This document shows, piece by piece, positions 1,369 through 18,202 of a stretch of 18,202 nucleotides of DNA. The translations under genes and the position numbers were made by a program. Position 1 is the first letter of the stretch. Every line of letters begins with the position of its first letter. The stretch covers positions 1-18,202 of IMG/VR virus record IMGVR_UViG_2617270976_000013; one strand, written 5' to 3'. The notes beneath the pieces were generated by a model that worked only from the letters and a program-made list of their open reading frames with translations, was not told where the DNA came from and made no database searches. This stretch comes from a virus (lineage: Duplodnaviria > Heunggongvirae > Uroviricota > Caudoviricetes).

Positions 1369-1444
1369 GCCGATATAGCTCAGTTGGTAGAGCAGCGCAT
1401 TCGTAATGCGAAGGTCGTAGGTTCGACTCCTATTATCGGCACCA
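1369..1444 (+). tRNA. thrW: tRNA-Thr (anticodon CGU)
   Basis: 76-nt sequence GCCGATATAGCTCAGTTGGTAGAGCAGCGCATTCGTAATGCG...GGTTCGACTCCTATTATCGGCACCA with cloverleaf features, CGT anticodon in the loop and 3' CCA; located immediately after proA as in E. coli. Confidence 0.9.
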
Positions 1445-1458
1445 TTTAAATCAATAAG

Positions 1459-2622
1459 TTACACATCACTAGTACCTTCCTTATTTTTTGACTGGGACAA
1501 ATTTGGGACCGATGGGTTCAGGATCGAGTCTATTTGCCGTGCATGTTCGGTAAGGTGATTAGGTGCGAGGTGAGCATATCGACGAACCATTTCGATAGAC
1601 TCCCAGCCTCCCATTTCCTGTAACACTGACAACGGGACTCCGGCTTGAACCAGCCAACTTGCCCAGGTGTGTCTCAAGTCGTGAAATCTGAAATCATCAA
1701 TACCTGCTCGTCTCAGCGCCGCTTTCCAGGCTGTGTTTGCGTCATACCGCATCTTCCTGACCGTTGGCGCTTTCGTTCCGTCTGGTTTGGTACAGCTTTC
1801 CTTGTACACAAATACCCAACGGTGATGATTCCCGATTTGTTTTTTCAATACGCGACATGCAGTATCATTCAGCGCAACGCCAATTGCGCGGTTTGATTTA
1901 CTCTCTTCCGGGTTTATCCATGCCACCCGGCGCTGCATATCTATTTGTTGCCATTCAAGGTTGATGATGTTCGAGCGTCTTAAGCCTGTTGCCAGTGCAA
2001 ATTCAACAACAGACTTTAATGGCTCCGGACATTCATCAATCAGCCTTTGTGCTTCATGGGGCTCCAGCCAGCGGATCCGTTTATTCTTTGGTTGAGGCAC
2101 TTTAATAATTGGTGCCTTATCCAGCATTTTCCATTCACGCTCTGCGGCTCTTAGTAGGGCCTTTATAAATGAAAGATGCGTAGCCTTCGTTGCAACGGAC
2201 GCTGGTTTTGGCGTGTATTCTGGAACAGGTTTCCCTTTTTTTCTGCATGCTTCTGCCCTGAGTTTCCAGTTTTCCTCATGACGCCGGTTCGTCATTTTCT
2301 GCATTGCTGAATAAATTTTTGATTCAGTAATGTCTCTTAGTTGCATTCCTGCGAAATGTTGAAGCCAGAATCCGATCCGGCTTTTGTCATCGTCCAGTGA
2401 TTTTTTATGTGCTTTCTCTTCAAGCCACCTGACACACGCTTCCTCGAACGTTATATCAGGTATTTCACCAAGTTTGCTGACCCGCCATGCTTCAGCCTTT
2501 AGCTTGTCATGGAGTTCTGTCGCCTGCCTTTTGTCCTTTGTTCCAAGAGACTGTTTAAATCTTTTACCGTTCGGCAATGTGAAACTGGCGTACCATATTT
2601 CACCTCTGCGGAAGAGTGACAT
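1459..2622 (-). CDS. int: tyrosine site-specific integrase, P22-type
   Basis: 387-aa ORF with C-terminal catalytic motifs ([10 protein letters not shown] ... RRYAHL) typical of phage tyrosine recombinases; SD GAGGA upstream of the ATG at 2622; adjacent to the tRNA. Confidence 0.95.
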
Positions 2623-2849
2623 TTTCTTTCCTCTGTTATGCCATCACCCGCGCTCACCTGGACAGTATGCAGCGGAGACTGAAGCGCCGCAATGCAGGCT
2701 TGCCGTGTTGTGAGGTAAGGATATTTTGGCTTGGTTGGATCTTTACGTGTTGCCTGTAGGCGGCCTGTTCGTATCCAGTTGGTGGCGGTTGGTCTGGATA
2801 TCTTAAGAAACTGACAGGCCTCATCGAGTGTGAGGCTGTATGATTCCAT
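2499..2849 (-). CDS. xis: excisionase, P22-type
   Basis: 116-aa product starting [31 protein letters not shown], an HTH-type excisionase; overlaps the int 5' end; SD GAGGT 5 nt upstream of the ATG at 2849. The ORF track start at 2879 was rejected in favour of this ATG. Confidence 0.8.
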
Positions 2850-3099
2850 GGTTACCTCTGCTTTTTGAACGCATGTCACGTAACTTCTTAATGTGTTCTG
2901 CCGTTTCGATCTCTTCTGCTATCCGATCTGCATCAGCTTTATTCACAGGTTCAAAGTCATGATTAAAGCGGAACATGCTGGCGATACATGTTCTGCCTTT
3001 TCGGATGTAGTGAACTTTGTTGTGGGTAGAACGCAGGATTTTGCAGGGAGTGCCGTGGTGGTCGACGTACCAGGTGTTAGGAAAAATGATTCTGAACAT
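2821..3099 (-). CDS. hypothetical phage protein (92 aa)
   Basis: ORF with SD GAGGTG about 7 nt upstream of the ATG at 3099; no family recognised. Confidence 0.5.
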   Translation of the reverse strand: MFRIIFPNTWYVDHHGTPCKILRSTHNKVHYIRKGRTCIASMFRFNHDFEPVNKADADRIAEEIETAEHIKKLRDMRSKSRGNHGIIQPHTR

Positions 3100-3146
3100 T
3101 TTTACACCTCAGTTGGACGATGTTGAAATTTGCTGCTTTGAGGCCA

Positions 3147-3365
3147 TCACAGTCCCCATTGTTTGTTCTTAAGTTCGATCTCCTCCTGGCAACTTGCACA
3201 AGTCCGACAACCCTGAACAGCCAGGCGTCTTCGCTCATCTATCGGATCGCCACACTCACAACAATGAGTTGCGGATACAGTCTGGTAGTTCAGACGACGC
3301 ATTTTTATTGCTGTATTGCGCTGTAATTCTTCGATTTCTGATGCTGAATCAATGATGTCTGCCAT
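3147..3365 (-). CDS. TraR/DksA-family C4-type zinc-finger protein
   Basis: 72-aa product with CCECGDPIDERRRLAVQGCRTCASC, a four-cysteine zinc finger of TraR/DksA type; SD GGAAG upstream. Confidence 0.8.
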   Translation of the reverse strand: MADIIDSASEIEELQRNTAIKMRRLNYQTVSATHCCECGDPIDERRRLAVQGCRTCASCQEEIELKNKQWGL

Positions 3366-3414
3366 CTTCCATTAATCCCTGAATTGTTGGTTAATACGCT
3401 TGAGGATGAATGCG

Positions 3415-3441
3415 AACAATAAAAAAGGAGCCTGTAGCTCC
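3415..3441 (-). terminator. putative intrinsic terminator (minus strand)
   Basis: Hairpin ggagc-ctgta-gctcc (3427-3441); on the minus strand it is followed directly by a T6 run (plus-strand aaaaaa 3421-3426). Confidence 0.4.
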
Positions 3442-3463
3442 CTGATGATTTTGCTTTTCATGT

Positions 3464-3679
3464 TCACCGTTCCTTAAAGACGCCGTTTAACATGCCGATC
3501 ACCAGGCTTAAATGAGTCGGTGTGAATCCCATCAGCGTTACCGTTTCGCGGTGCTTCTTTAGTACGCTACGGCAAATGTCATTGACGTTTTTATCCGGAA
3601 ACTGCTGTCTGGCTTTTTTGATTTCATAATTAGCCTGACGGGCAATGCTGCGAAGGGCGTTATTATGTTCTATTGTCAT
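3464..3679 (-). CDS. hypothetical protein (71 aa), translationally coupled downstream of the 250-aa gene
   Basis: ATG at 3679 with GAGG about 5 nt upstream, 8 nt after the stop of the 250-aa ORF; product MTIEHNNALRSIARQANYEIKKARQ..., no family recognised. The ORF track extends it to 3817 but that overlaps the upstream gene. Confidence 0.5.
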   Translation of the reverse strand: MTIEHNNALRSIARQANYEIKKARQQFPDKNVNDICRSVLKKHRETVTLMGFTPTHLSLVIGMLNGVFKER

Positions 3680-3686
3680 ATTGGCC

Positions 3687-4439
3687 TCACACTTCGAATG
3701 CCAGTTGAGGGGTAAAGACGTCCCGTTCAGCGTTGTAATTAAGTGAACTGGCACTGTTGAATGATTCAATGCGTTCCACAAGAACTTGCGTACGGGTTTC
3801 TTTACTTGCGGGAGCATATGGCGAACCTACCCAGGATTTGTCGATGCCTATATTTCTTGCGACGTTCGTGCTGTCTGCAGACGAAAGCGGTACATGAGTA
3901 AAAATGTCTTTATTTAACATCCGTAACCCATGAATCTTGGTGATTGGGTAGCCGTACTGATCTACAACATGACGTATAAGATCGCGTAGTTTAGCCCGAC
4001 ACGCTCTCGGTCGTTTTGCATCGTATTCCCCCATCGAGCCGATGCAGACGCGGGGAAACTCATGGCACAGACGAATAAATCGCTCATCTGGTTCGTTCAT
4101 GTGCCACACCGGAGCACCAATAAATTTACCGTGAGGCCATGCCGCAATCAGGGCGTCATTCTCTTCACTGGTTCCGCCGATAACATCCGGGATAACCGCG
4201 AATGAGAAACGAGGGTGATTACCCCAGCGTTCAACAAATCTGTAATATTCATTCCAGTCTATGGCCTTGTTTTTTGTCCAGAATGTGAATGCACCATTAT
4301 CAAGAGCAAATGATTGGGTGACTTCGGAAGCCAGATCAATCTGAGCTGGATTAGCAAAACTGATGAATGCGTGTCTGCCTTTCCAGGCTTTCAACGCACA
4401 GGTATCGGGAGTTATTGGACCACCGTGAAAATGAATCAT
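3687..4439 (-). CDS. 250-aa protein with TGT-superfamily (tRNA-guanine transglycosylase-like) motifs; candidate DpdA-type 7-deazaguanine DNA transglycosylase
   Basis: Ordered motifs resembling bacterial Tgt: LDNGAF (46-51) vs TDSGGFQ, AVIPDVIGG (81-89), CIGSMG (132-137) vs VGGL, KDIFTHVP (177-184) vs IDMFDCVMP, TNVARN (191-196) vs TRNARN. No CxCxxC zinc site. The ORF itself is secure; the family call is from a by-eye alignment. Confidence 0.5.
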   Translation of the reverse strand: MIHFHGGPITPDTCALKAWKGRHAFISFANPAQIDLASEVTQSFALDNGAFTFWTKNKAIDWNEYYRFVERWGNHPRFSFAVIPDVIGGTSEENDALIAAWPHGKFIGAPVWHMNEPDERFIRLCHEFPRVCIGSMGEYDAKRPRACRAKLRDLIRHVVDQYGYPITKIHGLRMLNKDIFTHVPLSSADSTNVARNIGIDKSWVGSPYAPASKETRTQVLVERIESFNSASSLNYNAERDVFTPQLAFEV

Positions 4440-4594
4440 ACACTCTCCCGTTTATTATTTATCTCCTCAGCCAGCCGCTGGGCTTTCAGCGGATTTCGGA
4501 TAACAGAAAGGCCGGGAAATACCCAGCCTCGCTTTGTAACGGAGTAGACGAAAGTGATCGCGCCTACCCGGATATTATCGTGAGGATGCTTCAT
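4436..4594 (-). CDS. small protein (52 aa), lambda orf60a-like position immediately downstream of exo
   Basis: ATG overlaps the exo stop (ATGA) and its stop overlaps the ATG of the 250-aa gene (ATGA); product [52 protein letters not shown]. Below the ORF track length cutoff. Confidence 0.5.
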
Positions 4595-5271
4595 CGCCAT
4601 TGCTCCCCAAATACAAAACCAATTTCAGCCAGTGCCACGTCCATTTTTTCGATGAACTCCGGCACCATCTCGTCAAAATTCGCCATGTACTTTTCATTCC
4701 GCTCAATCACGACATAATGCAGTCCTTCACGCTTCATCCGCGGGTCATAGTTGGCAAAGTACCAGGCATCTTTTCGTGTCACCCACATGCTGTACTGCAC
4801 CTGGGCCATGTAAGCCGATTTTATGGCCTCGAAACCACCGAGCCGGAACTTCATGAAATCCCGGGAGGTAAACGGGCATTTCAGCTCAAGGCCATTGCCG
4901 TCACTGCATAAACCATCGGGAGAGCAGGCGGTGCGCATACTTTCGTCGCGATAGATGATCGGGGATTCAATAACATTTACGCCGGAAGTGAACTCAAACA
5001 CGGTTCTGGCGTCGTTCTCGTACTGTTTTCCCCAGGCCAGCGCTTTAGCGTTAACTTCCGGAGCCACACCGGTGCAAACCTCAGCCAGCAGGGTGTGGAA
5101 GTAGGACATTTTCATGTCAGGCCACTTCTTTCCTGATCGGGGCTTTGCTATCACGTTGTGAACTTCTGAAGCGGTGATGACGCCGAGCCGTAATTTGTGC
5201 CATGCATCATCCCCCTGTTCGACAGCTCTCACGTCGATCCCGGTACGCTGCAGGATAATGTCCGGTGTCAT
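4591..5271 (-). CDS. exo: lambda-type 5'-3' exonuclease (Red alpha)
   Basis: 226-aa product [40 protein letters not shown]... matches lambda Exo along its length; ATGA overlap with bet. Confidence 0.95.
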
Positions 5272-6431: not shown

Positions 6432-6590
6432 TTAGTGATTCAGGCCGTTACCGCGTCCGTCGAGAAAAACTTCCACGAGCAAATCACGGGTATAAGTGCG
6501 CTCGATGCCGCGATGCAGATATAGCCGTCCGCGTAAATTAGCTGATGCAGTCCAGGTACCATCTTTGTGTTTGACCAGCATTCCTGGCAT
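6432..6590 (-). CDS. small ORF (52 aa) in the kil/cIII position, function unknown
   Basis: ATG at 6590 preceded by GAGGTG (5-nt spacer); product MPGMLVKHKDGTWTASANLRGRLYLHRGIERTYTRDLLVEVFLDGRGNGLNH; below the ORF track cutoff. Overlapping alternative ORFs exist in other frames. Confidence 0.35.
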   Translation of the reverse strand: MPGMLVKHKDGTWTASANLRGRLYLHRGIERTYTRDLLVEVFLDGRGNGLNH

Positions 6591-6899
6591 GACCGCACCT
6601 CAATTAACGGTCTGCATTCCGTAATGTTGATGAACCATAAAAACTCCTGCCCGTAAGCTGGGCTGCTGAACATATAGAGACTTCTGCGCGTATTCAGGCG
6701 GTGGATGGCCGCCGGTTGTCATAACTAAGCCGCCTCGTTGAAGCGACTGAGGTATGAAATGTTGAGTTAATTTCAGCTGGTCACACCGACGTTCACGCGT
6801 CCGTTTCACCCCTCGCACTCCCCGAAGCCTGCTGAAATTCAAACTGCGGATCTAAGCGGTCATCGCAACGGTGAATCAGGTAGTTGCCGTATCGTTGTG

Positions 6900-6990
6900 T
6901 TGTTGCGATGAACTTATTTAAAACTACAGTTGTTTTATCGTCAACAACAAAAGTTGTTTTATTGGTTGTTTTAGATATAACTGGTTGTAT
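6900..6990 (-). promoter_or_regulatory. putative leftward early promoter and operator array (pL/OL-like)
   Basis: Minus strand reads TTGACG, 17 nt, TTAAAT; overlapping repeats of TAAAACAAC/GTTGTTTT in direct and inverted orientation (plus strand agttgttttatcgtcaacaacaaaagttgttttattggttgtttta). Confidence 0.4.
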
Positions 6991-7085
6991 TTAGGATGGA
7001 TTTATTTTGTGACTTGAATCGCATAGCGATAACTGAAGCGAGGTTATGGTGGTTTTTTTAACGGTGTGTGTGATGAGGGGGGGGG

Positions 7086-7113
7086 CAAAAGAAAACCCGG
7101 CACGGTGACCGGG
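7086..7113 (-). terminator. putative intrinsic terminator downstream of the repressor gene (minus strand)
   Basis: GC stem cccgg (7096-7100) / ccggg (7109-7113) with an 8-nt loop; on the minus strand followed by TTTTCTTTT and then a C9 tract (plus-strand G9 at 7077-7085). Confidence 0.4.
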
Positions 7114-7234
7114 ATTCTTACGCCGTTAGGTAAAGATATTATTGCGGTGGCTTAATATTACTACCTAGAGCAAAGATAGGAATTAGTTCTTTACTGAATG
7201 AGCACAATGCCCAGTTGATAATTTTTAATTGGTA

Positions 7235-7924
7235 CTACCCATGCTTCCTATATGTCTGCGGCATGCTCCCAATAACCTTACCGAAGATGAACACCCGGTT
7301 CATCTCGTCTTTCTCGATCGGGTCCCACGGTGAGTAGCTTTTGTTATCAGAGATGACCAGCAGCTTATCCTTCATCATTTGCAGGCGCTTTACATGGGCT
7401 GTGTCGTCGTACAGAAACGCATAGATACCATCACCGTCGAAAGATTTAACTGTGATATCAACGAACAGCAGATCACCTGGTTCGATCGTTCCTGACATGC
7501 TGTCACCACGCACGTTAATGATGCGGATATTTTCCGCCTTCCTACCATCGAACATGTGACGAGCATCGTCAAACGAGTACTCAACCGAGCGTAGAACTTC
7601 TACAAACTCACGGTTGATGACTCCCGGCCCAGCACTGACTTCTATATCAAGAACGTCAATCTTGAAGTATTTGGAATGGCTGACAGTTGATTGTATTGGT
7701 TGCACTGTACTGTCTGACATATTTCCAACGCCAGAAGATAACCATTCTGCGCGCACACCCAAAGCGTTCGCGATCTCCACGATTTTAGTTGTTTGATTAG
7801 CTTTCCCTGTTTCGATTTTCTGAATAGCAGCCTGGCTAACCCCGACCAAATCCCCAAGCGCCTTTTGTGTAAGGCCTCGCGCTAATCTGGCTTCTTTAAG
7901 TCTTTCTGAGAGTGTTGTTTTCAT
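7235..7924 (-). CDS. cI: CI-like prophage repressor, HTH plus S24 (LexA-type) peptidase domain
   Basis: 229-aa product MKTTLSERLKEARLARGLTQKALGDLVGVSQAAIQKIETGK... with C-terminal GDSM and VKRL (Ser/Lys dyad context). Start chosen at ATG 7924 (not 7990) to leave a 105-bp operator region; no SD, consistent with a leaderless mRNA. Confidence 0.9.
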   Translation of the reverse strand: MKTTLSERLKEARLARGLTQKALGDLVGVSQAAIQKIETGKANQTTKIVEIANALGVRAEWLSSGVGNMSDSTVQPIQSTVSHSKYFKIDVLDIEVSAGPGVINREFVEVLRSVEYSFDDARHMFDGRKAENIRIINVRGDSMSGTIEPGDLLFVDITVKSFDGDGIYAFLYDDTAHVKRLQMMKDKLLVISDNKSYSPWDPIEKDEMNRVFIFGKVIGSMPQTYRKHG

Positions 7925-8028
7925 AGTCCAAATGTACAACCAAGGTTTTATTCCATCAAACGAAAATGGTTGTTGACTAAAAACAACCATGGTTTTAATC
8001 TTGATTCAAATTAACCACGGAGGTTGTT
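7925..8028. promoter_or_regulatory. divergent promoter/operator region (OR, pR, pRM-like)
   Basis: Three operator-like sites sharing AACCA/TGGTT half-sites (caaccaaggtttt, aaaatggttgttg, aaaacaaccatggtttt with perfect palindrome aaccatggtt). Rightward TTGACT (7973-7978) then TTTAAT; leftward TTGATG, 17 nt, TACATT ending about 7 nt before the repressor ATG. Confidence 0.55.
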
Positions 8029-8954: not shown

Positions 8955-9560
8955 ATGGCAAACACTGCTGAGATATTCAATTTTCCAGTGCCGGATGTGG
9001 CACAAAAGGAGCCGCGCGTGGCAGATCTCGATGATGGTTATACGCGCATTGCAAATGAGTTGCTGGAAGCTGTGATGCTGGCCGGATTAACACAGCACCA
9101 GCTTCTGGTCTTCCTGGCTGTCATGCGCAAAACATATGGCTTTAATAAAAAACTGGATTGGGTGAGCAACGAGCAACTTTCCGAGTTGACCGGGATATTG
9201 CCGCACAAGTGTTCTGCTGCAAAAAGTGTTCTGGTAAAGCGTGGGATTTTTATTCAGAGCGGGCGGAATATCGGCATTAATAATGTGGTCAGTGAATGGT
9301 CAACATTACCCGAATCAGGTAAGAAAAATAAAGTTTACCTGAAAGAGGTAAATTTACCTGAATCAGGTAAGAAAAGTTTACCCAAATCAGGTAAAGACGT
9401 TTACCCGAATCAGGTAAACACAAAAGACAAACTAACAAAAGACAATATAAAACCTTTTTCGTCCGAGAATTTTGGCGAATCCTCTGACCAGCCAGAAAAC
9501 GATCTTCCTGTGGTGAAACCGGATGCTGCAATTCAGAGCGGCAGCAAGTGGGGGATCTGA
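8955..9560 (+). CDS. O: replication initiator, lambda O-like (N-terminal origin-binding domain)
   Basis: 201-aa product; VADLDDGYTRIANELLEA...LAVMRKTYGFNKK matches lambda O (VADLDDGYARLSNMLLEA...LRKTYGWNK); SD GGGAGG upstream of ATG 8955; contains iterons. Shorter than lambda O. Confidence 0.85.
   Translation: MANTAEIFNFPVPDVAQKEPRVADLDDGYTRIANELLEAVMLAGLTQHQLLVFLAVMRKTYGFNKKLDWVSNEQLSELTGILPHKCSAAKSVLVKRGIFIQSGRNIGINNVVSEWSTLPESGKKNKVYLKEVNLPESGKKSLPKSGKDVYPNQVNTKDKLTKDNIKPFSSENFGESSDQPENDLPVVKPDAAIQSGSKWGI
9306..9418. repeat. origin iterons (ori) inside the O gene
   Basis: Four to five copies of about 18 bp TTTACCYRAATCAGGTAA (starts near 9306, 9333 degenerate, 9353, 9377, 9400), each internally palindromic (ACCTGA-a-TCAGGT), followed by an AT-rich stretch (9418-9462). 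Confidence 0.7.
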
Positions 9561-9609
9561 ATGGAGCGTTAATGATGCAGCGGATATCATCAGGTGCCTA
9601 GTACGGGTG

Positions 9610-9861
9610 ATGGAGATCATCAAGCAGGATAGCCAGCAGAAAGAAGGTAATCAGGCATTAATGTTGAAACAGTACTTTGTTAATCTGCTAATAATGGAAC
9701 TGTACGAGGAAGTTCATAACGGTGATGCGGCTGATTCTGTTTTTAAAAGTACGGAACCTACACAAGTACTTGATAACTTATGGAGCAAATGGCAGGAGGC
9801 TATAGCTATTTTTGATATTTGGAATTACCCAGTTGCGACTGAGGAAGACTTGGCAGACTAA
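9610..9861 (+). CDS. hypothetical protein (84 aa) in the position normally occupied by a helicase loader
   Basis: ORF from ATG 9610 (MEIIKQDSQQKEGNQALMLKQYFVNLLIMELYEE...); no similarity to lambda P or DnaC recognised; start uncertain. Confidence 0.4.
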   Translation: MEIIKQDSQQKEGNQALMLKQYFVNLLIMELYEEVHNGDAADSVFKSTEPTQVLDNLWSKWQEAIAIFDIWNYPVATEEDLAD

Positions 9862-10055
9862 TTTTCAGCACATTTGATTTCCAATAATCAACCAGCCATA
9901 ATCATGCCATTGGAGCCTGAACAACTCCGGTGACTTCTGCGCTAAACGGGGACGTTTATGCGCACATACAATCCAACCTATCTTCTCCATTCACAGATGC
10001 AGAAATGCACCTGCGTTTTTTTGCATCCAACGTTTGACCTCTGCGGAGGTGAAGC

Positions 10056-12117: not shown

Positions 12118-13200
12118 TTAGAACTGGTAAACCATACCTACAGCAACGATATCATCGGTAGCAACGCCAGATGCTTTCGTGAAATCGCTCTTATCAATCA
12201 GGTTGATTTTGTAATCAACAAAAGTGGACATATTTTTGTTGAAGTAATAGGTTGCACCTACATCAATATATTCAACCAGGTCCTGATCACCCCACGCACC
12301 CAAGTCTTTTCCTTTAGATTGCAGGTAAGCAACGGACGGACGCAGACCGAAGTCGAACTGATATTGTGCAACTACTTCGAAGTTTTGTGCTTTGTTGGCA
12401 ATATGGTTATTACCAAAAACAGTCATGTTCTGGGTTTCAGAATAGGTGGTAGCCAGATAGATGTTGTTCGCATCATATTTCAGACCAGCTGCCCATACTT
12501 CAGCATTTTGACCAGATGCATTCAGGCTGTTGTTACCGTAGATAACCTGATTATTAGTGCGGTCAGATTTAGCATAGGTTGCACCTACACCGAATCCTTC
12601 ATACTCATAAGTAGTGGAGAAACCGAAACCATCACCATTAGCTTCAGTTACGTCAGTGCGGTCATTTTTACCCTGATACTGAGCAGCAAAGTTCAGACCA
12701 TCAACCAGACCAAAGAAGTCATTGTTACGATAAGTTGCAACACCTGTGGTGCGACCAGTCATGAATACATCTGTTTGGGTCCAGGTATCGCCACCGAATT
12801 CTGGCAGAACGTCGGTCCATGCACCAATATCGTATGCTACACCGTAGTTACGGCCATAATCGATGGAGCCGTAGTCACCGAATTTCAGGCCAGCGAAGGC
12901 AAGACGGGTTTTATCTTTGGAGGAACCTTGAGATTCAGCGCGGTTGCCTTTGAATTCATATTCCCACTGACCGAAACCAGTCAGTTGATCGTTGATTTGG
13001 GTTTCACCTTTGAAGCCAAGACGGGCATAAGTAGTATCACCATCATCTGCATCATTAGAGGAGAAGTAGTGCTTAGCATTAACTTTCCCGTACAGATCCA
13101 GCTTGTTACTGTCTTTATTATAAATTTCAGCTGCCTGAGCAGACATCGCCATCAGTACTGATGCAGTTACAGCAGAAATTGCCACTGTTAATTTTTTCAT
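12118..13200 (-). CDS. OmpC/NmpC-family outer-membrane porin (prophage moron)
   Basis: 360-aa product with signal peptide [23 protein letters not shown], Gly/Tyr/Asn-rich beta-barrel composition and C-terminal F (..VGMVYQF); lies between Q and the lysis genes in opposite orientation, as nmpC does in DLP12. Confidence 0.9.
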
Positions 13201-13626
13201 CGTGAGCCCTTTTTTTGAACTATTATTAAAAAATGATGTCACTGCGCGATAAATATTCATCTAATCAATGTGATTATTTCAAGATGTAAGTTTTGGTTTC
13301 TCATTTGATTTGTGAAGTAGATCTCTATTTTTATCTGAACTTTTTCTATCGAATCCTATTCATGGCTCTTGGCTGAATAAAAATAAATCTATTAGCCAAT
13401 TTATATTAATGGCTGTTATTTATAAGTGCTCTATAATTTGAAGGTTCAATTTAAATCGGCTAAAAATAACGCTGGAAATTATTTGTTGGTTATTTGTTGA
13501 GATTTGCTTATGTATTTGTAGTGGTGTTTTCAATACTCGGTAGCATTCTCGCAAATATCATTTAGTGGTTTACGTACGTAAAAAATTGGTTATGCTGTTA
13601 AGAGTGGTTACTTCGTCACACAGCTT

Positions 13627-14972: not shown

Positions 14973-15266
14973 TTATTGTGAGCAATACACACGCGCTTCC
15001 AGCGGAGTATAAATGCCTAAAGTAATAAAACCGAGCAATCCATTTACGAATGTTTGCTGGGTTTCTGTTTTAACAACATTTTCTGCGCCGCCACAAATTT
15101 TGGCTGCATCAACAGTTTTCTCCTGTCCAATTCCCGAAACGAAGAAATGATGGGTGATGGTTTCCTTTGGTGTTACTGCTGTCGGTTTGTTTCCAACAGT
15201 AAACGTCTGTTGAGCACATCCTGTAATAAGCATTGCCAGAGCGGCAGAAAACAACATTTTTTTCAT
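14973..15266 (-). CDS. bor: Bor lipoprotein (serum-resistance moron)
   Basis: 97-aa product MKKMLFSAALAMLITGCAQQTFTVGNKPTAVTPKETITHHFFVSGIGQEKTVDAAKICGGAENVVKTETQQTFVNGLLGFITLGIYTPLEARVYCSQ with lipobox LITGC; matches lambda Bor. Confidence 0.9.
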   Translation of the reverse strand: MKKMLFSAALAMLITGCAQQTFTVGNKPTAVTPKETITHHFFVSGIGQEKTVDAAKICGGAENVVKTETQQTFVNGLLGFITLGIYTPLEARVYCSQ

Positions 15267-15446
15267 CTTATTATCCTGCATTGTTAAAAACGGCAGAATC
15301 CTATGTGACAACAATTAAACGATAGTTAAATGGATTGATGAAAATTAAAACTATATAGGTGTACGGTCAGACTATTGGAGGTAGTCAGGATTTGAATGTC
15401 AGTCTGTTGTCGGCATTCTGGCAATGCAATTTGGATAAAGCGGGGA

Positions 15447-15808: not shown

Positions 15809-15964
15809 ATGATTGATGACGGCGTGGTGTCCCGTATTGATCTGGATATCCGCCGCACCGGGATTAATGAACTGGGTAACAGTATCACTCTCTGGCGTCG
15901 TGACGGACCGGTAATGATTTCTTTTGATGATCTGTGGAGTGCGATAACGCATGGCGGACAGTGA
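15809..15964 (+). pseudogene. truncated ORF overlapping the J start, possibly the 3' remnant of an upstream baseplate gene
   Basis: Open frame from the stop at 15737 to 15964 encoding ...MIDDGVVSRIDLDIRRTGINELGNSITLWRRDGPVMISFDDLWSAITHGGQ; overlaps J by 14 nt as upstream baseplate genes often do; no SD or N-terminal domain. Confidence 0.3.
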
Positions 15965-16871
15965 ATTTCAGCGCCCGACGCTGGCAGAAAATATCAGTAT
16001 GCTCCGTAACGATTTATTCGCCAGGCTGGACGTCAGCGACACGCTCCGGCGCATGGATGAAGACGTGCGGGCAAAGGTGTATGCGGCGGCGCTGCATACG
16101 GTTTACGGTTACATCGATTATCTGGCAATGAACATGCTGCCTGACCTGTGCGATGAGTCCTGGCTGGCGCGACATGCTGCGATGAAACGGTGTCCGCGCA
16201 AGGGGGCCACGGCTGCCAGCGGGTATATGCGCTGGGAAGGTGTCAGCGATGGCCTGAAGGTGACTGCCGGGAGTGTTATTCAGCGCGATGACCTGGTTCA
16301 GTACACGGCAACTGCCGATGCAACCAGCTCCGGTGGTGTCCTGCGCGTGCCGATCGCCTGCTCAAGTGCAGGCGCGGTCGGTAACGCTGACGACGGTACG
16401 TCATTAATCCTGGTCACGCCGGTGAATGGTCTGCCGTCTTCCGGCGTGGCAGACACTCTGACAGGTGGATTTGATACTGAAGAGCTGGAAACGTGGCGCG
16501 CCCGCGTCATTGAGCGGTATTACTGGACGCCTCAGGGCGGGGCTGACGGGGACTATGTTGTCTGGGCTAAAGAAGTGCCAGGCATTACCCGTGCATGGAC
16601 ATACCGCCACTGGATGGGAACGGGGACTGTCGGTGTGATGATTGCCAGCAGTGACCTGATTAATCCCATTCCGGAAGAATCAACGGAAACGGCGGCAAGA
16701 CAACACATTGAGCCACTGGCCCCGGTGGCAGGCTCTGATTTGTATGTATTCAGGCCGGTGGCGCATAAAGTGGATTTTCATATCCGCGTGACGCCGGACA
16801 CACTGGAAATACGGGCTGCCATCACCGCCGAGTTGCGTTCGTTCCTGCTGCGTGATGGTTATCCGGAGTAA
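15951..16871 (+). CDS. baseplate assembly protein J-like (P2 gpJ family)
   Basis: 306-aa product MADSEFQRPTLAENISMLRNDLFARLDVSDTLRRMDEDVRAKVYAAALHTVYGYIDYLAMNMLPDL... recognised as the P2 J / e14 JayE baseplate family. Confidence 0.8.
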   Translation: MADSEFQRPTLAENISMLRNDLFARLDVSDTLRRMDEDVRAKVYAAALHTVYGYIDYLAMNMLPDLCDESWLARHAAMKRCPRKGATAASGYMRWEGVSDGLKVTAGSVIQRDDLVQYTATADATSSGGVLRVPIACSSAGAVGNADDGTSLILVTPVNGLPSSGVADTLTGGFDTEELETWRARVIERYYWTPQGGADGDYVVWAKEVPGITRAWTYRHWMGTGTVGVMIASSDLINPIPEESTETAARQHIEPLAPVAGSDLYVFRPVAHKVDFHIRVTPDTLEIRAAITAELRSFLLRDGYPE

Positions 16872-17095
16872 TCCATGCATCGTATAGATACGAAAGACAG
16901 CTATTAATTAATCAGGCCAACGAATACATGAACAGTAAACAATGGCCCGGTAAAACCGCTATTGGTCGTCTGAAAGGCGAGGAACTGGCGCAATATAATT
17001 CGTGGCTGGATTATCTGGACGCACTGGAGCTGGTTGATACCTCCAGTGTGCCAGATATTGAATGGCCTACGCCTCCGGCAGTTCAGGCCAGATGA
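16872..17095 (+). pseudogene. tail fibre assembly protein remnant (C-terminal part only)
   Basis: Frame open from the J stop encodes ...ERQLLINQANEYMNSKQWPGKTAIGRLKGEELAQYNSWLDYLDALELVDTSSVPDIEWPTPPAVQAR, the conserved C-terminal region of Tfa chaperones, with no N-terminal domain; converges on and overlaps the complete tfa on the other strand. Confidence 0.5.
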
Positions 17096-17669
17096 CATCA
17101 GGCGCGGTGCTGGTATCAGTTGCCGTCACCGCGTCAATGTAATCCAGCACAGCGTTAAGGCTGGTTGTTTCTGCCTGCGTCAGTTTACGTCCGGCCTGCA
17201 ATTTCAGCTGAATCAGACTGATTGAAGCCATTGCAGTATCAATCAGTGACTGGCGCTGTGCTTCTGCTGCATCTACTGCGGCGCTATGCTGTGCTTCGGT
17301 ATCCGTCACCCATTTCTCACCATCCCATTTATCGTATGGCGTTAACGGGGCGATAGTGGTTGTATTATCAGGGTAATCACCCGGAGCTGTGATTTCTTTT
17401 GACTCTCCCGTTTTGGTGCTATAGACGATTTCACCGCGATGGTCTGGCACATATTCCCATGAGTTAAAATTTGCAGAACGACAGATAGCATAACCCGCCT
17501 TATGTGTGCCAGGGGCATCTAAACAGGAATATGCAGGAATACCGACACCAATGGCAAGATATTCAGTTGATGCTGAAATATATTCCTGCGTCTCACTATC
17601 ATAGTTATAAACGGTAATATCCCCCGACTTTGTAGCAATAAGCTCACTATTTAATATTGCTTTATCCAT
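17067..17669 (-). CDS. tfa: tail fibre assembly protein (Tfa chaperone)
   Basis: 200-aa product ending ...QSLIDTAMASISLIQLKLQAGRKLTQAETTSLNAVLDYIDAVTATDTSTAPDVIWPELPEA, the characteristic Tfa C-terminus; start overlaps the stop of the upstream tail-fibre ORF (TAATG). Confidence 0.85.
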   Translation of the reverse strand: MDKAILNSELIATKSGDITVYNYDSETQEYISASTEYLAIGVGIPAYSCLDAPGTHKAGYAICRSANFNSWEYVPDHRGEIVYSTKTGESKEITAPGDYPDNTTTIAPLTPYDKWDGEKWVTDTEAQHSAAVDAAEAQRQSLIDTAMASISLIQLKLQAGRKLTQAETTSLNAVLDYIDAVTATDTSTAPDVIWPELPEA

Positions 17670-18202
17670 TATGCTGCTCTCACGATATAGTTAAATGCAA
17701 TGTTTCGAGGGCGATTCTCTGATGCTGTTGGTACAACCCTGGATGCATCAAAACTGAATCCTGTGTAAGGGGTATTTTTTGTTTCATATGTGCCTAGGTT
17801 ATTATAGATATTTCGCGTAGCTTGAGATGCTAAGGCAAAAGCACCAGTACCAGTCTGTAACCTGAAAGTTGCTGTATCAATGGTGCCTTTAACTTCATTT
17901 ATAAATCCTGTTATATTCCGAATGGTATCTCCCTGTGACGAAAGCAAGCTACGGTTAGTATCAATCCCTCTTCCATCATCCCAGCCACGAATAAACTCAC
18001 CGCGTAAATCAGGCAATTTATTTGTCGGGTAAACCTTTGCCAGTTCCGGGTATTCTTCAGCAGAAAAAGCCGCCCCGTTGCATTTCAGCCAGCCTGTTGG
18101 CGGAGTGGCGGAAGGCCACGGAACAGGCACGCCAACGGGTAATGCCGAACCTTCTCCCAAACCAACGTTTATGAAAATGCAGAAATAACGAGCAAATGGC
18201 AT
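17669..18202 (-). CDS. tail fibre protein, C-terminal (variable) segment with tail-collar domain
   Basis: 177-aa product containing LPDLRGEFIRGWDDGRGIDTNRSL (tail-collar signature); only 177 aa, so it cannot be a whole fibre; the ATG sits at the last bases of the window. Confidence 0.75.
   Translation of the reverse strand: MPFARYFCIFINVGLGEGSALPVGVPVPWPSATPPTGWLKCNGAAFSAEEYPELAKVYPTNKLPDLRGEFIRGWDDGRGIDTNRSLLSSQGDTIRNITGFINEVKGTIDTATFRLQTGTGAFALASQATRNIYNNLGTYETKNTPYTGFSFDASRVVPTASENRPRNIAFNYIVRAA
18152..18177. other. candidate DNA-invertase crossover site (hix/gix/pix-like)
   Basis: TTCTCCCAAACCAACGTTTATGAAAA: 26 bp, imperfect dyad around an AAACC-AA-CGTTT core; resembles hixL (TTCTTGAAAACCAAGGTTTTTGATAA) recalled from memory; lies within the 5' end of the tail-fibre segment. 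Confidence 0.5.

Follow-up and report, generated by a model that had tools for sequence, protein, structure and literature searches.

The TraR family comprises, according to Gopalkrishnan et al. 2017/2022, small DksA-like regulators of the RNA polymerase (RNAP) secondary channel, and proteins of this family complement a dksA deletion (PMC9239242). Orf73 of bacteriophage lambda was purified together with four other TraR homologues (Gopalkrishnan et al., mBio 2022, PMC9239242). It binds RNAP, inhibits rRNA and ribosomal-protein promoters and itself complements a dksA deletion. Made from pL during early lytic growth, lambda Orf73 slows host growth and raises the phage yield 3-4-fold, with a burst size increased about 4-fold, an effect that is eliminated by the D3A/D6A substitutions (PMC9239242). 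The residues reported as critical in TraR and Orf73 are the DxxDxA motif, the C4 site, two arginines and a C-terminal acidic residue; of the two TraR arginines, R48 is assigned to the rim helices and R49 to the beta'Si3 element of RNAP. The level of dnaA mRNA is lowered weakly if at all by Orf73, and effects on replication have been explained as indirect, via transcription (PMC9239242).

Identity and relatives of the TraR-family gene

The window, i.e., the whole 18,202-nucleotide stretch of DNA that was analysed, carries a 72-codon ORF with an ATG start, whose product is MADIIDSASEIEELQRNTAIKMRRLNYQTVSATHCCECGDPIDERRRLAVQGCRTCASCQEEIELKNKQWGL. The preliminary description had placed a 72-aa ORF at 3147-3365, exactly where it was found; the strand, absent from that description, is minus. 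The proposed TraR/DksA-like character of the protein is borne out by the HMM search, in which residues 33-64 score 37.3 bits with Pfam PF01258 (zf-dskA_traR; gathering score 24.9, E=2.8e-9), and by a full-length match to PHROG_54, 'DksA-like zinc-finger protein' (E=3.6e-26). Further backing comes from the 86% identity to lambda Orf73, with retention of all residues shown to be important. The finger, previously described as a canonical four-Cys motif, does have the C4 zinc pattern, but its string CCECGDPIDERRRLAVQGCRTCASC (residues 35-59) contains six cysteines rather than four. In the alignment, C35, C38, C56 and C59 match the zinc ligands CxxC-N17-CxxC of F TraR (C37, C40, C58, C61), and C36 and C53 are additional cysteines, as in lambda Orf73. 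In an alignment of 38 homologues (E. coli, Enterobacter and Citrobacter), C53 is nearly invariant and C36 is variable (C/I/A/E/S). This pattern suggests that C53 may have a conserved role, e.g., as an alternative zinc ligand or in a redox function.

The NCBIfam model TIGR02419 (C4_traR_proteo; phage/conjugal plasmid TraR) gives 53.9 bits (E=2e-14), less than its curated cut-off of 59.7, a shortfall that is uninformative against a TraR-like function, since the validated lambda Orf73 also scores under 59.7 (54.7 bits, compared with 80.7 bits for F TraR in the same calibration). The shortfall is a trait of the Orf73 branch and leaves the window protein outside the trusted set of this model. With the DksA-type NCBIfam models, the protein falls far under the cut-offs. 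DksA proper, a protein of ~150 aa with the DxxDxA motif at the tip of a coiled coil, was ruled out, as the window protein has 72 aa and no coiled coil.

The following features of the TraR family are found in the window protein: a size of 72 aa (the class spans ~70-75 aa) with a single N-terminal helix in the model, the DxxDxA motif, the C4 site, the R48/R49 equivalents and the acidic residue of the C-terminal helix. The location on a mobile element is likewise observed, the gene lying inside a lambdoid prophage of an E. coli/Shigella-type chromosome. The stretch D3-I-I-D6-S-A8 is invariant in the 38 homologues and aligns with D3, D6 and A8 of TraR; R46/R47 align with TraR R48/R49 and are nearly invariant in the same set, and E64 in the C-terminal helix is invariant in the window protein, lambda Orf73, TraR and all 38 homologues. 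Every residue named critical in PMC9239242 is present in the window protein, the two extra cysteines of lambda included.

A sequence search against solved structures returned full-length alignments only to the TraR chains of the RNAP complexes 5w1s and 6n57. The AF2 model, obtained with the 38 homologues and of moderate confidence (pLDDT 66.9, pTM 0.38), places helices at 5-27, 44-49 and 57-70 in addition to the zinc region. With this moderate-confidence model, the best Foldseek match in the PDB is TraR 6n57_M (probability 1.00, E=1.7e-3, TM 0.52, rmsd 7.2 A), followed by YbiI and DksA. Comparison of codons 1-61 with lambda orf73 yields 8 synonymous and 4 non-synonymous differences and a dN/dS of 0.12, which indicates that the gene is under purifying selection.

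Gp31 of Shigella phage SfI matches the protein at every residue (100% identity), and SfI, PhiR34_1, Turner and 3W, all viable phages, carry the same gene. Among 5426 complete E. coli genomes, 3312 (~61%) contain it with at least 90% DNA identity, in up to six copies per genome, under the annotation 'TraR/DksA family transcriptional regulator'. This is also the name given, wherever the source has one, among the 120 listed of 226 relatives in a large protein database. The loci returned by a scan of IMG/VR are all 94-100% identical to the query and therefore useless for covariation; the diverse contexts discussed below were taken from contigs encoding relatives and from phage records.

Comparison with described systems and the prophage context

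In lambda, orf73 was located here at 30392..30613 on the minus strand, where NC_001416 carries no annotation for it. The N-terminal 26 residues of the two proteins are identical, the finger is identical save for V49A, and the six cysteines as well as the ExxRL and RR residues are the same. The position between exo and xis is also shared, after orf61, the 31-codon ORF and the hairpin t2. The window protein differs by ten substitutions and is one residue shorter, with 6 of the changes in the last 11 residues (EEIELKNKQWGL in the window, EDLELISKQRGSK in lambda). Starting at the end of orf61 and up to and including codon 61, the two DNA sequences share ~94-95% identity; beyond this point the similarity drops to noise. 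A mosaic junction therefore lies within the last eleven codons (62-72, 3147..3179 minus), which accounts for the clustering of the six tail changes. The EEIEL-type tail is commoner than that of lambda across the Enterobacter, Citrobacter and E. coli relatives. In TraR, the C-terminal tail helix contacts betaSi1 (PMC9239242), and a functional difference from lambda Orf73, if any, would most likely sit in this tail. Downstream of the gene, lambda has ea22 and the window a DUF4222 gene; the immunity region of the window prophage also differs and is without N.

SfI gp31 (YP_009147477.1), annotated as 'DksA-like zinc-finger protein', belongs to an int-to-exo block with 98-99% DNA identity to the window, the DpdA/TGT-like gene included. 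The similarity stops at about 6438; SfI is a complete phage, and its leftward arm continues past gam with kil, cIII, an ssb-like gene, ral and an orf28-like gene. TraR of the F plasmid (PDB 5w1s, 6n57) is of the same length class and aligns from end to end with 31% identity, sharing DxxDxA, the C4 spacing, R48/R49 and the acidic residue of the C-terminal helix. It differs in having four cysteines instead of six and ExxRK instead of ExxRL, and in being plasmid-borne within the tra operon. Activation of transcription, seen at some promoters with F TraR, was weak if present at all at the promoters tested with lambda Orf73. DksA (with ppGpp) has the same Pfam finger family, the same RNAP site and overlapping promoter effects, but is about twice as long, bears DxxDxA on a coiled-coil tip, where the window protein is predicted to have a single N-terminal helix, and requires ppGpp for full activity. 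The top PDB match by sequence is E. coli YbiI (PDB 2kgo), for the finger only (residues 31-67, E=1.2e-5). The match stops short of the N-terminal helix, and YbiI is chromosomal. To our knowledge, the function of YbiI is uncharacterised.

The gene had been assigned to an early-left accessory region, and this assignment agrees with the map: it lies between exo/bet/gam and xis/int, in the leftward exo-xis region of a lambdoid prophage that follows proA and the tRNA gene thrW (Table 1).

Table 1. Features of the window, with positions, strands and supporting observations
Feature	Position	Strand	Observations
tRNA-Thr(CGU) (thrW)	1369..1444		after proA, before the prophage
int	1459..2622	minus	
xis	about 2499..2879	minus	excisionase family PHROG_2907
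DUF4222 gene	2821..3099	minus	Pfam PF13973 1.9e-19, PHROG_285, SfI annotation; where lambda has ea22
TraR-family / lambda Orf73-type gene	3147..3365	minus	ORF list, Pfam, PHROG, SfI/lambda identity, dN/dS, AF2
Seven-codon ORF MEDGRHH*	3349..3372	minus	read from sequence
Small ORF	3372..3467	minus	29 codons from ATG 3461, 31 from GTG 3467; SfI gp32
Intrinsic-terminator-like hairpin and U-run	3415..3443	minus	terminator scan, RNA fold, identical in lambda
orf61-like gene (probable extent)	3464..3679	minus	ATG 3679, 71 aa; directly upstream of small ORF
TGT/DpdA-like gene, 250 aa	3687..4439	minus	PHROG_887 'queuine tRNA-ribosyltransferase' 2.1e-99; no Pfam match
Second terminator-like hairpin	4498..4530	minus	inside DUF1317/orf60a-like gene, same leftward operon
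DUF1317 gene, exo, bet, gam		minus	leftward genes after TGT-like gene
kil	6432..6590	minus	
Two-hairpin segment (predicted)	6678..6759	minus	z=-2.5
Candidate leftward promoter	about 6944..6916	minus	TTGACG-17-TTAAAT, among AACAAC-N4-GTTGTT palindromes
S24 repressor	7235..7990	minus	
AACAAC-N4-GTTGTT palindrome	7966..7990		
cro, YdaT-like gene, O, nin-type genes, then porin gene and lysis genes		plus (porin gene minus)	genes after repressor
Replacement segment, ~320 bp	9555..9874		in place of ~3.7 kb of E. coli G1/2 prophage
OmpC/NmpC-type porin gene	12118..13260	minus	between Q-like antiterminator region and lysis genes
bor	14973..15314		
Baseplate J gene, Mu/P2-like	15951..16871		after switch at about 15788
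Tail-fibre and tail-fibre-assembly genes	17067..18202	opposite to baseplate J	

The DUF4222 gene is also found downstream in the contexts L005, L007, L094, L095 and L097, and it also follows the TraR-like gene in several prophages of Enterobacter and Citrobacter. The TGT/DpdA-like gene occupies the position of lambda orf63 and the start of orf61 and corresponds to gp34 of SfI; it may serve in the modification of DNA with 7-deazaguanine (anti-restriction). The porin gene, whose homologue is named ompC in RefSeq, is placed as in DLP12-type prophages.

The prophage is defective. Relative to the E. coli G1/2 prophage, the C-terminus of O, P, ren and other genes have been replaced by the short segment listed in Table 1, and beyond bor the sequence switches to genes for the baseplate and tail fibres. 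Genes for terminase and head are missing from the window prophage.

Between the S24 repressor gene and kil (6590..7235, minus strand), neither an N-like gene nor nutL was found, and the two program ORFs of this interval (80 aa and 77 aa) were rejected as N antiterminators, having no PHROG match. The same N-less immunity layout is shared by the viable phages PhiR34_1 and Turner. The leftward leader was likewise considered as the site of a put-like antiterminator RNA, an idea that was rejected: Rfam returned nothing, both at gathering thresholds and at E<=1, and the 311-nt leader shows no unusual degree of structure (z=+0.1). Within the leader, a segment of 60-80 nt with two predicted hairpins is kept in otherwise unrelated leftward operons, with 97% identity over 63 nt in HK225 and 85% in phi80, and occurs also in Enterobacter and Klebsiella phages. 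The segment has no Rfam match and includes the SD and ATG of a short ORF (MTTGGHPPP...). It follows a terminator in both phi80 and HK225. In phi80 this terminator stands just after the N gene, and, as the segment is there downstream of both, it is not a substitute for N.

The upstream hairpin and the route of transcription

Between the orf61-like gene and the TraR-like gene, 59-62 nt 5' of the ATG, lies a hairpin with arms AGGGAGCU-ACA-GGCUCCUU (3443..3425 minus), which has 8 pairs and a loop of 3 and is followed by UUUUAUUGUU. It corresponds to 't2', a terminator predicted for both lambda and phi24B (Bloch et al., PLoS One 2014, PMC4195576). The hairpin is contained in a small ORF with the product MKSKIIRELQAPFLLFAFILKRINQQFRD, whose TAA stands 6 nt before the ATG of the TraR-like gene and whose lambda counterpart has 31 aa. 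The C-terminal motif of the small ORF, PFLLxAFxxxRINxQFRE, is found directly 5' of the gene in six other contexts, in two of which a protein of 71-74 aa ends with it. The small ORF is conserved as a coding element and is probably translated. In the sequence TAATG, the stop codon of the small ORF and the start codon of the seven-codon ORF overlap; the latter ORF crosses the TraR-like start out of frame, and its equivalent at the same place in lambda reads MKDGRHH*. Ribosome profiling of lambda, as quoted in PMC8614690, yielded a 31-aa orf2313 and a 7-aa orf2311 peptide, with which the two lambda ORFs may, on the match in length alone, be identical. Directly upstream, a program ORF of 117 aa (3464..3817, minus) overlaps the TGT-like gene by 131 nt. 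PHROG_303 covers only its residues 45-117, so that the orf61-like gene is probably the 71-aa frame of Table 1; RefSeq and phage records annotate a 71-aa orf61 homologue.

Twelve distinct contexts were compared, and 5 of them have a hairpin with a U-run within 70 nt upstream of the gene; the same-strand background in the same loci is ~0.05 per 70-nt window. Four of these five contexts share a homologous small ORF and are consequently not independent. Lambda and the window share the arms GGGAGC/GCUCC, Enterobacter and Citrobacter both have GGUCGC/GCGGCC, a P22-like Ant context, where the hairpin is intergenic, has GGAGC/GCUCC, and a metagenomic contig has GGGAC/GUCCC. The peptide encoded over the hairpin varies (RELQAPF, RSLKRPF, KGLGVPF) while the pairing is kept, which suggests selection on the RNA structure. 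A strict column-wise count of covariation proved inapplicable, the hairpins of Enterobacter and Citrobacter being shifted by one in register and having a 4-nt loop. On the aligned sequences, the hairpin is a case of structure retained with sequence changed, and compensatory pairs are not claimed. The U-run doubles as coding sequence for the conserved PFLL; the relative in L097 has the same peptide family without hairpin and without U-run. The terminator is not universal: the homologues of Salmonella, Klebsiella and Pseudomonas, which are more distant and overlap the upstream ORF, lack it. Taken as a whole, the hairpin is a frequent, though not obligatory, and probably functional companion of the gene.

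In the preliminary description, a terminator bounding the gene from the preceding unit was taken to suggest separate regulation. The hairpin is real; taken alone, it is no sign of separate regulation, and a single leftward operon is more likely. A consensus scan of 2400..4600 found no sigma-70-like promoter. Since no credible promoter follows the hairpin, and since the hairpin lies inside an ORF that is conserved, the gene is best understood as the distal member of one leftward operon that requires read-through, and the hairpin more likely gates this operon than marks a separate unit. The second terminator-like hairpin of the operon has the same sequence as 't1' (4530..4508 in the window), which is predicted for both lambda and phi24B (Table 4, PMC4195576). 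Furthermore, the mRNAs of lambda orf73, ea22 and ea8.5 are lower than those of the upstream genes (Bloch et al., PMC4195576).

It is improbable that the gene is an independent transcription unit, in which the hairpin would end the preceding unit and a promoter over the U-run, p1, would drive the gene and those downstream; the separate regulation that would result, e.g., under oxidative stress, is to be judged equally improbable. The hairpin and U-run that such a unit calls for are real and conserved, and p1 (-35 TCATCA, -10 TTTTATTAT) was predicted by BPROM in lambda and phi24B. It was credited with the observation that phi24B orf73 and ea22 mRNAs exceed those of the upstream genes after H2O2 (PMC4195576). 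However, the -35 of p1 matches at only 3/6 positions, and its -10 is either TTTTAT, which is poor and has 18-nt spacing, or TATTAT with 21-nt spacing; in the window the hexamer reads TATTGT, a further mismatch, and the scan described above returned no promoter-like site. The region is, moreover, a translated-looking conserved small ORF abutting the gene, lambda Orf73 is reported as made from pL (PMC9239242), and the distant homologues with overlapping ORFs have no hairpin at all.

Expected action, alternatives and significance

Taking these observations together, the ORF is very probably a functional TraR-family member, orthologous to lambda Orf73 and expressed through one leftward operon with read-through of the hairpin. 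A repressor-controlled leftward promoter would drive this operon, from gam-bet-exo through the orf61-like gene, the small ORF and the TraR-like gene to DUF4222, xis and int, and the conserved hairpin and U-run, 60 nt upstream of the gene, would act as an attenuator needing read-through instead of as the boundary of an independent unit. Upon derepression of the leftward early operon of the prophage, the 72-aa protein would be made. By analogy with lambda Orf73 and TraR, its N-terminal helix with the DxxDxA tip would enter the secondary channel of the host RNAP, and the zinc-bound globular domain and C-terminal helix would contact the rim helices, beta'Si3 and betaSi1. The formation of open complexes at rRNA and ribosomal-protein promoters would then be inhibited, with no requirement for ppGpp, and host growth would be slowed and resources turned to phage production. 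RNAP binding, promoter effects and expression route are thus expected for the window prophage from homology with lambda. Expression in situ is uncertain, because there is no recognisable N and two terminator-like hairpins stand between the putative leftward promoter and the gene.

The view that the gene is an inert passenger of a decaying prophage, intact by recent descent and no longer expressed or useful, carries a small though appreciable probability. The prophage lacks ~3.7 kb, including the C-terminus of O and P, compared with a related prophage; its lysis genes and bor are followed at once by baseplate and tail-fibre genes, terminase and head genes are missing, and no N gene is present. 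On the other hand, nothing interrupts the ORF, which is 100% identical to its counterpart in a viable phage, SfI. Also intact are the S24 repressor, cro, the leftward genes and the operator-like palindromes, and the viable phages PhiR34_1 and Turner have the same N-less layout. Genes of cryptic prophages can, in addition, still be expressed upon SOS induction. The mechanism itself could also be questioned, if the main role of the protein were to block host replication initiation or to bias the choice between lysis and lysogeny via another target. For lambda, Sergueev et al. 2002 (cited in PMC9239242) implicated the segment orf73-ea22-ea8.5-orf55 in preventing the initiation of host replication, and orf73 is called pro-lysogenic by Zdrojewska et al. 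2019 and in PMC8614690. Binding of lambda Orf73 to RNAP and its promoter effects were, however, shown directly (PMC9239242), and the replication and lysogeny effects are downstream phenotypes of the same mechanism, not an alternative one, so that a different principal target is very improbable.

As a discovery the gene is of small weight, since papers on its family, on the mechanism and on the lambda orthologue already exist and the gene is routinely annotated. Its value is that of a positive control, in which family and mechanism were read from sequence alone.

A further proposal concerns the hairpin within the small ORF, which could be a translation-sensing attenuator, although this is improbable. 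Tight coupling of ribosome and RNAP on the small ORF would prevent termination, and an inhibitor of ribosome production would be synthesised; with poor translation capacity, transcription would end before the gene. If true, the attenuator would constitute a feedback loop from ribosome supply to the expression of an inhibitor of ribosome synthesis, and it could explain read-through in N-less lambdoid phages such as the window prophage. Were the arrangement a conditional attenuator, a part of lambda that has been studied in depth would gain a further level of control.
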